A stretch of 64,000 nt of DNA from a virus (lineage: Duplodnaviria > Heunggongvirae > Uroviricota > Caudoviricetes), in IMG/VR virus record IMGVR_UViG_3300017650_000009; one strand, written 5' to 3'. The number at the start of each line of letters is the position of its first letter. Position 1 is the stretch's first letter. This document shows, in pieces, positions 24,621-50,799 of the stretch. Under the pieces are notes generated by a model that saw only the letters and a program-made list of their open reading frames with translations, made no database searches and was not told where the DNA came from. Both the position numbers and the translations under genes were made by a program.

Positions 24621-24750
24621 TTACGAGCCGATTTGTTTAGGTTATCTTTTTTGAACAAAGCGGGCCTGGGTTCAAATCCCAGCGTGAGAACTAGTTCTCA
24701 TGTGGTGTAGTGGTAGCATCGAAAACGTCTAAGCATGTACTTGCTCGTAG
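24621..24750 (+). ncRNA. YrlA/Y-RNA-like circularly permuted tRNA mimic
   Basis: Order is T-arm, capped acceptor stem, D-arm; ends pair with a bulged-C helix. Confidence 0.75.
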
Positions 24751-24758
24751 CTTAACCC

Positions 24759-25490: not shown

Positions 25491-25566
25491 GCGTTTGTAG
25501 CTCAACTGGATGAGCGTCACCCTACGAAGGTGAAGGATGTAGGTTCGACTCCTACCAAACGCGCCA
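25491..25566 (+). tRNA. tRNA-Arg(ACG)
   Basis: Cloverleaf, CCA. Confidence 0.95.
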
Positions 25567-25567
25567 A

Positions 25568-25644
25568 CGGCGTGTAGCGCAGTCTGGTAGCGCACCTGAT
25601 TTGGGATCAGGGGGTCGCAGGTTCGAATCCTGCTACGCCGACCA
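25568..25644 (+). tRNA. tRNA-Pro(TGG)
   Basis: Cloverleaf, CCA. Confidence 0.95.
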
Positions 25645-41887: not shown

Positions 41888-41946
41888 AACAAAATAATCG
41901 AAAAAATTGTTGACGTACAGGAGCAACACTGTTATAAAGAGAACAT

Positions 41947-42047
41947 AGCAGGACAACAGCAAGTGTTTAACAAGGTCGAAAGACGAAGGAACATTAGTTC
42001 TGAGAACCTCTTTGGGTCCACTACAAAGCGCAAGCTGTTGTCCTGTT
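41947..42047 (+). ncRNA. structured leader RNA of a tRNA operon
   Basis: CAGGACAACAGC/GCTGTTGTCCTG 12-bp stem at the presumed TSS. Confidence 0.55.
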
Positions 42048-42051
42048 ATTT

Positions 42052-42128
42052 TGGAGTATAGCTCAGTTGGTAGAAGCGGGTGACTGTTAATCACCATGTC
42101 GCAGGTTCGAGCCCTGCTACTCCAGCCA
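42052..42128 (+). tRNA. tRNA-Asn(GTT)
   Basis: Cloverleaf, CCA. Confidence 0.95.
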
Positions 42129-42282
42129 ATTTAGTCCATATAGTAGCAAGTTGCGACACTACAACTGGTGTCAATGAAGAGCTACGTATTCGTATGGACA
42201 CACAGGAGAAGGAAACTTCTCCTGTTAGGTTGTTAGGATGATCAGGGTTCAACTCCCTGCTTGGATGGGTATCTAGTCCTCT

Positions 42283-42356
42283 TGGGAAGGTCGTCGGTTC
42301 AAATCCGACCTCGAGTGCTTCGGTGCTCAAGTAGCTCAGCCTGGTAGAGCACCCAT
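42283..42356 (+). ncRNA. circularly permuted tRNA mimic (UUCG-capped acceptor stem)
   Basis: AGGTC-GTCGG-TTCAAAT-CCGAC-CTCGAGTGC-TTCG-GTGCTCAAG-TA-GCTC-AGCCTGGTA-GAGC. Confidence 0.75.
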
Positions 42357-42510
42357 GTTATTCAGGAAAGACCTTTGTTAGTGCCACGCAAGTGGAGTGA
42401 CAAGGATAGGTCGTTGATTCGGCGAGGGTGGGGCCGGAATCAAATAATTCTTACAAAAATATTGAACAACTTGGAACTCCTTTGTTACTATGCGTAACAA
42501 AGGAGTTTCC

Positions 42511-42822
42511 ATGTCTTATATTCACACTGGTACGTTAAATGCAGTCAATCGTTATCTCATGATGCTTGATGTAGAGGGTGTAAAATCCGAAAATCACGCA
42601 ACGCTGGAGAATGGTGATACAACAAGTCTCGAGCACATAAAATGGATGCTTGAGGAATTAAATCGTGTTATAGATCCGACTGGTGAAGCAGGTTTTCCTG
42701 TGGATAAATTTTCACGCTGGCTTGGTTTCATCCAAGGGGTTTTGATTTGTAAAGGACTTACTGATGTCAATACTGAGAGAAACATTACTCGACCTTGGTT
42801 CAACAAATCCGAACCCAGTTGA
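42511..42822 (+). CDS. hypothetical phage protein
   Basis: SLEHIKWML...DKFSRWLGFIQGVL. Confidence 0.7.
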   Translation: MSYIHTGTLNAVNRYLMMLDVEGVKSENHATLENGDTTSLEHIKWMLEELNRVIDPTGEAGFPVDKFSRWLGFIQGVLICKGLTDVNTERNITRPWFNKSEPS

Positions 42823-45753: not shown

Positions 45754-45832
45754 AGGGACCTAGCTTAAAATCAGGTGAAGCACTGCGGATCCATCCGCAG
45801 GTAGGTAGGTTCGAATCCTGCGGTCCCTGCCA
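45754..45832 (+). tRNA. Trp-like tRNA with aberrant 8-nt anticodon loop
   Basis: AGGGACC/GGTCCCT-G-CCA; loop GATCCATC. Confidence 0.6.
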
Positions 45833-49191: not shown

Positions 49192-49488
49192 TCATTAGGT
49201 CTGTCAGTTATTTGGGTAACTGACAGACTTACCATATGTGGTTGACAACAATCAAAACTATGTTATATGTGGAATATGGAAAGTAGGAAGCTTTACTTGC
49301 AATGCTAGCGGACGTCGACTTATGCGAGCGGAGGAGTAAGCCAAATATGATCCTAGAGAGGACTTGGTCAGGCGCAACCCGCAAAGGTCGACCGCGCGAA
49401 TAGGGGTTCAATTCCCCTTGCAGTTTAGGAAATCGTCTAAACTGTCTTGGACAGAGGGTTCAATTCCCACTCTTCTCGAACGTAATAT

Positions 49489-49568
49489 GGATTGGGTCGT
49501 CTAAGAGCGTGAGGACACACTGTCGGAGTACGGTGAGATGCAAGTTCGAATCTTGTTCCAATCCCCCA
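49489..49568 (+). pseudogene. tRNA-like element with C73 and aberrant anticodon loop
   Basis: GGATTGG/CCAATCC-C-CCA; T-arm; loop TCGGAGTA. Confidence 0.55.
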
Positions 49569-49570
49569 AT

Positions 49571-49658
49571 GGATGGGTAGCCTAGTCAGGTCAAGGCAGC
49601 AGACTTTTAATCTGCCGGTAATTTACCATCGCGGGTTCGAATCCCGCCCCATTCACCA
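49571..49658 (+). tRNA. tRNA-Lys(TTT) with long variable arm
   Basis: Loop CTTTTAA; GGTA/TACC variable stem; CCA. Confidence 0.85.
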
Positions 49659-49659
49659 A

Positions 49660-49700
49660 TAAGCCGAAGGTCCTGGGTTCAAATCCCAGAGGGTATACCA
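49660..49700 (+). pseudogene. orphan tRNA 3' half
   Basis: TAA-GCCG-AAGGTC-CTGGG-TTCAAAT-CCCAG-AGGGTAT-A-CCA. Confidence 0.75.
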
Positions 49701-50723: not shown

Positions 50724-50799
50724 GCGCTTATAGCTCAGTTGGTAGAGCAGGGATCTCTAAAATCTTTTGTCGTCGGTTCGAGCCCGACTAAGCGCACCA
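50724..50799 (+). tRNA. amber suppressor tRNA (anticodon CTA)
   Basis: GGGAT-CTCTAAA-ATCTT; otherwise canonical 76-nt cloverleaf, A73, CCA; own promoter. Confidence 0.9.

Follow-up and report, generated by a model that had tools for sequence, protein, structure and literature searches.

A candidate YrlA-type permuted tRNA-like module without a Ro60-binding handle in the tRNA-Asn trailer of an uncultivated jumbo phage

The 64,000-nucleotide stretch of DNA analysed here in full (hereafter the window; IMG/VR record IMGVR_UViG_3300017650_000009, Caudoviricetes) derives from a giant soil phage of the uncultivated jumbo type and carries 42 transfer RNA (tRNA) genes as called by ARAGORN. Approximately 380 nt of heavily structured non-coding DNA separates its tRNA-Asn(GUU) gene (42052-42128) from a 103-codon gene (42511-42822), and within this DNA lies a tRNA-like element, centred on a T-arm at 42293, in which the two halves of a tRNA occur in permuted order. 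Judged from its sequence, the element is by its core a YrlA-type tRNA-like module, in a variant that has no Ro60-binding handle, is found in one phage species and has a candidate function. The explanation that we favour, tentatively and at close to an even chance, is that the module adopts an L-shape that would not be chargeable, is likely a diverged, handle-less paralogue of the Y RNAs of its own phage lineage, and is carried on the tRNA-Asn transcript.

The element has a permuted, acceptor-capped tRNA-like architecture

The features of the element, all on the plus strand, are as follows.

42243-42259, + strand: extra upstream T-arm, CAGGG-UUCAACU-CCCUG (by reading; Rfam gives just a weak mascRNA-type T-arm match)
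42260-42282, + strand: putative 5' side of the closing stem, and junction (constrained folds, alignment to lineage Y RNAs, family flanks)
42283-42292, + strand: proximal UGGG (42283-42286) and variable-loop equivalent AAGGUC, with a C48 able to make a Levitt pair with G15 (by reading)
42293-42309, + strand: T-arm of the module, GTCGG-TTCAAAT-CCGAC, with a 5-bp stem GUCGG/CCGAC and a G53-C61 type closing pair (by reading, descriptor match and Rfam YrlA T-arm columns)
42310-42331, + strand: closed acceptor-like hairpin, 42310-42318 with 42323-42331, under a cUUCGg cap (TTCG 42319-42322; by reading and descriptor)
42332-42350, + strand: U8-A9 linker TA (42332-42333) and D-arm (42334-42350), GCTC-AGCCTGGTA-GAGC, in RNA form GCUC / AGCCUGGUA / GAGC (by reading)
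42351-42356, + strand: ACCCAU (A 42351, CCCA 42352-42355), 3' strand of the anticodon-stem equivalent, with 42283-42286 or 42265-42270 as partner
42360-42366, + strand: AUUCAGG, 3' strand of the outer closing helix, preceded by a 4-5 nt bulge (GUUA) and without the CUUG-plus-stem signature of a Ro handle

An earlier, sequence-only reading of this DNA had described the T-arm, the acceptor strands joined by TTCG, the TA linker, the canonical D-arm, the CCCA and the upstream T-arm, and all of these were found as described. The acceptor hairpin comprises nine pairs, of which six are Watson-Crick, two are G.U and one is a C.A mismatch (42312/42329). The D-arm presents A14, G15, G18 and G19 at the expected sites, and by reading the set of tRNA elbow and core positions is complete (U8, A14, G15-C48, G18 G19, U54 U55 C56, A58 and G53-C61). 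A descriptor of the layout (perfect T-arm; hairpin of 8 bp or more whose loop has 3-6 nt; 2-nt linker; 4-bp D-stem with GG in the loop) returned two sites in the window, at 24666 and 42293, and none in 100 shuffles; a control in which the T-arms were retained and the following 45 nt shuffled gave a mean of 0.015 sites per window. The permuted tRNA-like arrangement at 42293 is real, and its occurrence is non-random.

At the native locus ARAGORN called neither a tRNA nor a transfer-messenger RNA (tmRNA), Rfam returned no tRNA or tmRNA match, and reading the element revealed no CCA, no discriminator and no anticodon loop. Upon joining the halves in normal order in silico, with a borrowed 7-nt loop and a CCA, ARAGORN called a tRNA. 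This call, the intact elbow nucleotides and the lack of a CCA lend support to the earlier proposal of an elbow-presenting tRNA mimic that would be unchargeable.

Two partners are available to the CCCA. Pairing with the proximal TGGG (42283-42286) leaves a variable loop of 6 nt, AAGGTC, while pairing of ACCCAT (42351-42356) with the distal ATGGGT (AUGGGU in the RNA, 42265-42270) leaves 42277-42287 as a possible variable-arm hairpin (UCCU-CUU-GGGA), as in YrlA. The constrained fold picked the distal pairing, UGGGU/ACCCA. The CCCA/TGGG pairing proposed earlier is possible, in competition with a second partner, and the 5-nt variable loop AGGTC proposed with it has to be corrected to AAGGTC. In the constrained fold, CUUGGA (42260-65) can also pair with UUCAGG (42361-66), giving a further helix that closes the domain. 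The upstream T-arm continues straight into the CUUGGAU strand and could stack on this outer helix, in the way that a T-arm stacks on an acceptor stem; alternatively it could be the remnant of a tRNA 3' end. We considered a decayed tRNA ending in this T-arm and rejected it, as no convincing D-arm or anticodon arm can be read upstream.

The core is that of a phage-wide YrlA-like family

YrlA is a circularly permuted tRNA with its acceptor stem closed by a loop; it has the L-shape of a tRNA, is without a free CCA, and conserves the T/D elbow, the likely docking site of an effector (10.1101/312249; PMC4201824). The permuted, acceptor-capped topology is thus not new, being the defining topology of YrlA-type Y RNAs. 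The sequence-only reading had seen in the element a sign of repeated selection for this topology, a claim that finds no support: the topology is the standard of a large YrlA-type phage family and is already in the literature.

In a local scan, the sole Rfam family to span the whole module was YrlA (RF02553), over model positions 1-114 with 34.2 bits (E 7.8e-6), which is under the RF02553 gathering cut-off of 69 bits. Phage elements with clear Ro-type handles themselves reach just 36-48 bits on this model, and Chen et al. caution that adjacent tRNAs give false-positive YrlA matches (PMC4201824). With handle-bearing elements at 36-48 bits and adjacent tRNAs of the window at 31.2 bits, we rejected the Rfam YrlA score as an uninformative criterion of membership, and took architecture as decisive for class assignment. 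On architecture, the element has the permuted order (T-arm, closed acceptor-like stem-loop, D-arm) and the tertiary-contact nucleotides, and 42293 has no Ro60/Rsr-binding handle, i.e. no GNCGAAN0-1G-type motif in a bulged helix of the 5' and 3' ends. Because this defining handle was looked for and is missing, the element is not classifiable as a Y RNA.

We searched IMG/VR with the pattern T-loop, 10-13 nt, UUCG, 7-10 nt, UAGCUCAG. At least 94 of the first 120 matches listed are true closed-acceptor modules, 70 of them with perfectly paired 7-bp stems. The family core that emerges is a T-arm directly abutting a cUUCGg-capped acceptor hairpin, followed by a UA linker and then a GCUC/GAGC D-stem; the UUCG cap, UA linker and GCUC/GAGC D-stem of the 42293 element are the consensus among the matches listed.

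These UUCG-capped phage YrlA-like RNAs (IMG/VR loci L190-L309) split into handle subclasses, one of Ro type (GGYG(N)RWRG...CUUG plus stem) and another with an outer stem and (U/A)ACWGCAA. All IMG/VR members examined score under the Rfam YrlA cut-off, leaving the family essentially unannotated in phages. A TROVE protein was found on none of five contigs of the ACWGCAA subclass (14-78% complete), compared to four of five contigs with Ro-type handles, which is suggestive that Ro-independent YrlA-like RNAs may be common. In Sphingobium phage Lacusarx (L033 500-700), the tRNA region, although annotated, holds a tRNA(CAU) missing from the annotation and a lone T-arm/3' half, as well as a T-arm, a closed 7-bp hairpin and a GUCU/GGAC D-arm in flanks without a Ro motif, which may be another handle-less module.

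The Ro60 handle of the lineage Y RNAs is absent from 42293

The nearest cultured relative is Sinorhizobium phage Phosso (469 kb), with negligible nucleotide similarity and the same gene order: both have, in order, a tRNA-Val, a 258-codon gene, TTGACG-N17-TATAAA, a structured leader, a tRNA-Asn, a structured trailer and a homologous small gene. Phosso encodes a TROVE/Ro60 protein at 290 kb, distant from the syntenic region at 433 kb, and has at least four Y RNAs, three with the permuted module (L060 1655-1793, 6684-6828 and 6925-7063) and one without (L035 1380-1455). A further relative with such an RNA is a 435-kb IMG/VR phage (G007, L183(-) 1469-1607).

A common handle is found in the four Phosso Y RNAs, the element at 24621 in the window (24621-24751, which includes the descriptor site at 24666), L183 and L178. 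It consists of a 5' strand GAGC-C-GAU with a bulged C, a GGUUAUCU junction and a 3' strand ACUUGCUC. By reading, the helix just 5' of UUAUC covaries in the six module-bearing RNAs (UUAGG/UCUAA, UUGGG/UCCAG, UAGGG/UCCUA, UAAGG/UCUUA etc.). A search of the window with the handle pattern gave a single match, at 24627. Reading of 42200-42400 and its alignment to six lineage Y RNAs revealed no handle there, with no GCCGAU and no (A)CUUG-plus-stem by the module. The earlier statement that the element has neither a Ro-type bulge nor a CCA is borne out. MAFFT did place the upstream T-arm region against the Ro handle; this was judged an artefact, the segment being a self-contained hairpin. The CCUUUGUUAG downstream of the module is part of a long GCAA-capped hairpin that is kept in Phosso and in a 480-kb contig (G005), and is not a handle strand. 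A scan of IMG/VR for GCCGAT...GGTTATCT was dominated by chance matches, with one true Y RNA in 118.

Two further observations concern the Phosso Y RNAs. At the head of the Phosso tRNA array, L035 1380-1455 (420.66 kb) is the positional homologue of window 24621-24751; it retains the Ro-type handle (GAGCCGAU...GGUUAUCUU...CACUUGCUCG), and about 30 nt of unrelated DNA replaces the tRNA-like module. A handle without a module at the position of the 24621 element indicates that the module is a swappable cassette. L060 1655-1793 and 6684-6828 carry N73-CCA within the acceptor loop and are thus true permuted tRNA-like genes. By reading, one of the two has G3.U70 and A73, the alanine/tmRNA identity set, and might be chargeable if RNase P cuts as in M. 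smegmatis YrlA.

Sequence comparison points weakly to paralogy

We compared the acceptor hairpins of 131 unique family members with that of the 24666 element. The 42293 hairpin is the second most similar, with four of seven pairs identical, the closest being that of an unrelated Ro-type element (L244). Furthermore, GGGUAUCU (42267-74) resembles the junction motif of phage YrlA RNAs, which is GGUUAUCU or GGUUACUU in the family, and lies approximately 18 nt 5' of the T-arm, a position as in the lineage Y RNAs. The acceptor similarity and the junction motif weakly favour paralogy, and the element is probably a diverged paralogue of the lineage's own Y RNAs without the Ro60 handle. The earlier claim that it arose independently of the 24621 element does not sit well with a core that is family consensus, nor with an acceptor similarity that points, if weakly, to common descent.

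No resident tRNA matches both halves of the element, making a recent tandem-tRNA accident unlikely. The linker between the acceptor strands has the form of a designed tetraloop and not of a decayed N73-CCA spacer, the strands pair at eight of nine positions across this 4-nt loop, and no tRNA lies on either side, none of which is expected of a dimeric-tRNA artefact. On a model (R1) built from the element itself, and hence illustrative, true tRNA dimers reach no more than 42 bits and the element 95 bits. The scenario in which a recent deletion brought two ordinary tRNAs together, named in the earlier reading as the one that would overturn it, was not seen: the acceptor strands are complementary, there is no discriminator-CCA, and the two halves have no common match among the tRNAs.

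Elsewhere in the window, tRNA fragments cluster round a tRNA-Lys (49380-49700). They include a T-arm with an 11-bp hairpin and a second, imperfect T-arm (49402-49475), an uncalled tRNA-like sequence (49489-49566) in which the acceptor pairs and an 8-nt anticodon loop is possible, and a solitary 3' half bearing ACCA (49661-49700), which has exactly the same 17-nt T-arm as the 24666 element. Two ARAGORN tRNA calls lie at 45754-45832 and 50724-50799; a call with an undetermined two-base anticodon (cc) scores 36.5 bits on Rfam tRNA, and a call with a CUA anticodon (amber suppressor type) 66 bits.

The element lies in the trailer of a tRNA-Asn transcription unit

The setting of the element comprises two further features.

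41909-42128, + strand: upstream context, with promoter-like TTGACG-N17-TATAAA (41909-41937), structured leader and tRNA-Asn(GUU) (42052-42128)
42372-42445, + strand: two hairpins 3' of the module, a long GCAA-capped hairpin (42372-42410) and UUGAUUCGGC...GCCGGAAUCAA (42412-42445)

The layout of promoter-like site, leader and tRNA-Asn also occurs in Phosso and G005. No promoter-like site was found between the tRNA-Asn and the module, unlike the case of the Phosso L060 Y RNAs. Because the module has no promoter of its own and is positioned in the trailer of this unit, its transcript would most likely be part of the tRNA-Asn unit, made from the promoter-like site at 41909. The hairpins at 42372-42445 match L034 5148-5198 (blastn) and bound a lineage-specific insert on its 3' side; they and the hairpin that sequesters the downstream ribosome-binding site are the only parts of the trailer in common with Phosso and G005. 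One low-depth contig of a metatranscriptome run (X13) covers 41900-42134 and no part of the element, and is uninformative on expression of the element; four sequencing runs were compared as assembled contigs.

The unit itself is common to three distant jumbo phages (window 41909-42128 and 42372-42510; L034 4587-5420; L179 5588-6350). Its 5' part holds the promoter-like TTGACG-N17/18-TATAA(A/C), a leader of approximately 105 nt with a long closing stem and a conserved CCACUACAA, and the tRNA-Asn; its 3' part holds a structured trailer of 380-610 nt, in which the middle is variable and two hairpins on the 3' side are conserved, and a hairpin that masks the AAGGAG ribosome-binding site of a small phrog_7775 gene. 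Neither leader nor trailer matched any Rfam family, and a large phage RNA of the GOLLD/ROOL type as the identity of the whole trailer was rejected, having no Rfam support.

The element was found in one phage species

Several routes were taken to homologues of the element. Its exact 20-mer had no match in IMG/VR; the module is in none of 30 IMG/VR loci with relatives of the downstream 103-aa protein; no relatives of a neighbouring 150-aa protein were found; and contigs with protein-database relatives P0002-P0004 (approximately 60% identity) do not carry the module. A metagenome scan for GATGGGTATCT...T-loop gave six matches, all of them chance. Candidates from blastn of 42130-42470 against phage records, in Synechococcus phages S-H35 and S-B64 and Sphingobium phage Lacusarx, were rejected as ordinary adjacent tRNAs, some of them unannotated. 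On contigs with an identical neighbour protein the element is 100% identical, so that there is no variation to read. A variant contig (X5) has single-nucleotide polymorphisms and an indel in the flanks and no change listed in 42132-42380, a weak observation given the low overall divergence.

Interpretation and competing explanations

In our preferred reading, the RNA chain would run from the T-arm through the cUUCGg-sealed acceptor stem to the D-arm, entering and leaving via the anticodon-stem equivalent. An L-shape is expected because all D-loop/T-loop elbow nucleotides are intact, and the fold would be neither aminoacylated nor decoded. Transcribed with tRNA-Asn from the promoter-like site at 41909, it might offer its elbow to an elbow-recognising factor, either a tRNA-processing or tRNA-modification enzyme or the YrlA effector, and would do so untethered to Ro60.

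A number of our results weigh against this reading. Two adjacent ordinary tRNAs of the window (25503-25627) reach 31.2 bits on the YrlA model, barely lower than the element. Its unconstrained minimum free energy fold is not a cloverleaf and favours a rival helix, GGUGCUC/GAGCACC, which is equal in energy. The Ro60 handle, by which Y RNAs are defined, is absent. Searches of phage records, IMG/VR, metagenome contigs and contigs with relatives of the neighbouring protein gave no homologue in the same flanks, and function consequently draws no support from covariation or conservation. Finally, the nearest relatives, Phosso and G005, carry a structured RNA of 530-610 nt after tRNA-Asn that is unrelated to the module, which suggests that the module is a recent and dispensable acquisition.

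Its restriction to this phage species, with unrelated sequence at the site in the relatives, would also suit a non-functional relic, i.e. a duplicate, in decay, of a Y RNA or of a tRNA/Y-RNA recombinant, which has shed its handle and is drifting in a fast-evolving, variable trailer. The richness of the window in tRNA fragments, extra T-arms and half-tRNAs, the orphan T-arm just upstream and the missing handle agree with such a relic. However, all stems of the module and all nucleotides of its tertiary interactions are intact, with one mismatch in 18 core pairs, the acceptor is longer by 2 bp and sealed by the extra-stable cUUCGg cap, and the element is unchanged in the variant strain X5 (a weak point). 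We consider a relic unlikely, though not strongly so. Somewhat less credence goes to a genuine second Y RNA of the phage Ro60, in which the module tethers an effector and a non-canonical handle, formed by a CUUGGAUGG / UUAUUCAGG helix or by CUUGGA/UUCAGG plus AUGGGU/ACCCAU with a 4-5 nt bulge, takes the place of GAGC-C-GAU / ACUUGCUC. Ro60 is encoded in the lineage (Phosso), multiple Y RNAs per genome are normal, and the constrained fold allows a bulged, bipartite closing stem; Chen et al. moreover consider that helix formation is perhaps dispensable in Y RNAs and that many are missed by bioinformatic detection (PMC4201824). On the other hand, the element has neither the conserved 5'-strand bases (GNCGA / GCCGAU) nor the 3' CUUG signature, which are common to all six lineage Y RNAs examined and to the Ro-type IMG/VR class; the bulged C is absent, and the outer helix is weak and G.U-rich.

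It is improbable, in our estimation, that the module serves as a tRNA-elbow decoy or sensor, independent of Ro60, which the phage grafted into an operon leader/trailer RNA. Such a body mimic, offering no cleavable anticodon loop or acceptor end, would titrate or report a host factor that docks on the elbow, e.g. a tRNA-targeting defence nuclease or a processing enzyme, and would belong to a Ro60-free, handle-less YrlA-like class beside the ACWGCAA-type RNAs of TROVE-less contigs. Still less probable is a processing signal, whereby the module and the upstream T-arm recruit RNase P, RNase Z or RNase E to the tRNA-Asn trailer and the cut detaches the downstream mRNA from the structured RNA, akin to tRNA punctuation. 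The position between tRNA-Asn and a gene whose ribosome-binding site is masked by a conserved hairpin would suit it, as would the M. smegmatis YrlA, which has a 7-bp acceptor, is cleaved by RNase P and gains a CCA (PMC4201824). But closed or extended acceptor stems have been argued to be poor RNase P substrates (Wang et al., 10.1101/312249), the stem here being 9 bp and tightly capped, and relatives run the same operon without the module. An origin independent of the 24621 element, e.g. by tandem duplication of one tRNA gene with loss of the outer halves, which would speak for repeated selection of the topology, appears the least probable of all. The 24666 element has a different D-stem (GUGU/GCAU as against GCUC/GAGC) and D-loop, no handle is shared and tandem tRNAs are plentiful in the window; yet acquisition or paralogy is simpler for a core that is the consensus of a widespread, pre-existing family, the window holds no parental tRNA, the tetraloop linker is no decayed N73-CCA spacer, and the acceptor stem ranks second of 131 in similarity to the 24666 element.

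Significance

Taken alone, the element is of little weight, as permuted, acceptor-capped tRNA mimics are a known and very common type of phage RNA, and what is unusual about it is just the missing Ro60-binding stem. Nearly all phage members escape the Rfam YrlA model, scoring 34-48 bits where the cut-off is 69. The tRNA-like module also acts as a movable cassette, with the Phosso homologue a handle without a module and the 42293 element a module without a handle. A movable module with handle-less copies provides a natural route to the role of the YrlA elbow apart from Ro60, a question since 2014.

Comparison with known systems

Compared to a canonical tRNA, the acceptor of the 42293 element is closed by UUCG, there are no free ends, and CCA and anticodon loop are missing. 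Permuted tRNA genes of the Cyanidioschyzon merolae type have, like the element, the 3' half before the 5' half and adjacent acceptor strands; their products are processed into chargeable, functional molecules that have both a CCA and an anticodon arm. Two-piece (permuted) tmRNA likewise has its 3' half first with adjacent acceptor strands and matures to a chargeable form with CCA, a tag frame and downstream pseudoknots, whereas the element has no CCA and no tag open reading frame, and has G1.U72 / U3-A70 in place of G3.U70.

YrlA (RF02553), known from Salmonella, Mycobacterium smegmatis and mycobacteriophages (Chen et al. 2014, PMC4201824; Wang et al. 2018, 10.1101/312249, citing PDB 6CU1), has the same permuted order. 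The element resembles it in its entry and exit via the anticodon-stem equivalent, conserved elbow and tertiary nucleotides, lack of a free CCA and proximity to tRNA genes. Unlike YrlA, it lacks both the GNCGAAN0-1G motif and the bulged Ro60-binding helix, reaches 34 bits against the cut-off of 69, is apparently not near a Ro60 gene, and has no promoter or terminator of its own, being embedded in a tRNA trailer.

With the lineage Y RNAs (24621-24751, Phosso L060/L035 and L183) the element shares the kind of tRNA-like module and a GGGU(U)AUCU junction approximately 18 nt before the T-arm, and with the 24666 element the T-loop UUCAAAU and a similar acceptor hairpin sequence. The lineage Y RNAs differ in having the GAGC-C-GAU ... 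ACUUGCUC handle and an 8-9 nt linker of the CGAAAAC type after the D-arm, both of which the element lacks, and the three Phosso L060 Y RNAs have their own promoter-like and terminator-like sites, whereas the element has no promoter-like site of its own. Unlike the ACWGCAA subclass of the IMG/VR UUCG-capped RNAs (e.g. L203, L197 and L247), the element has neither the ACWGCAA motif nor a variable-arm hairpin with a 7-nt loop, and its flanks match no subclass; the two nevertheless have an identical core, and that subclass is likewise without the Ro-type motif.

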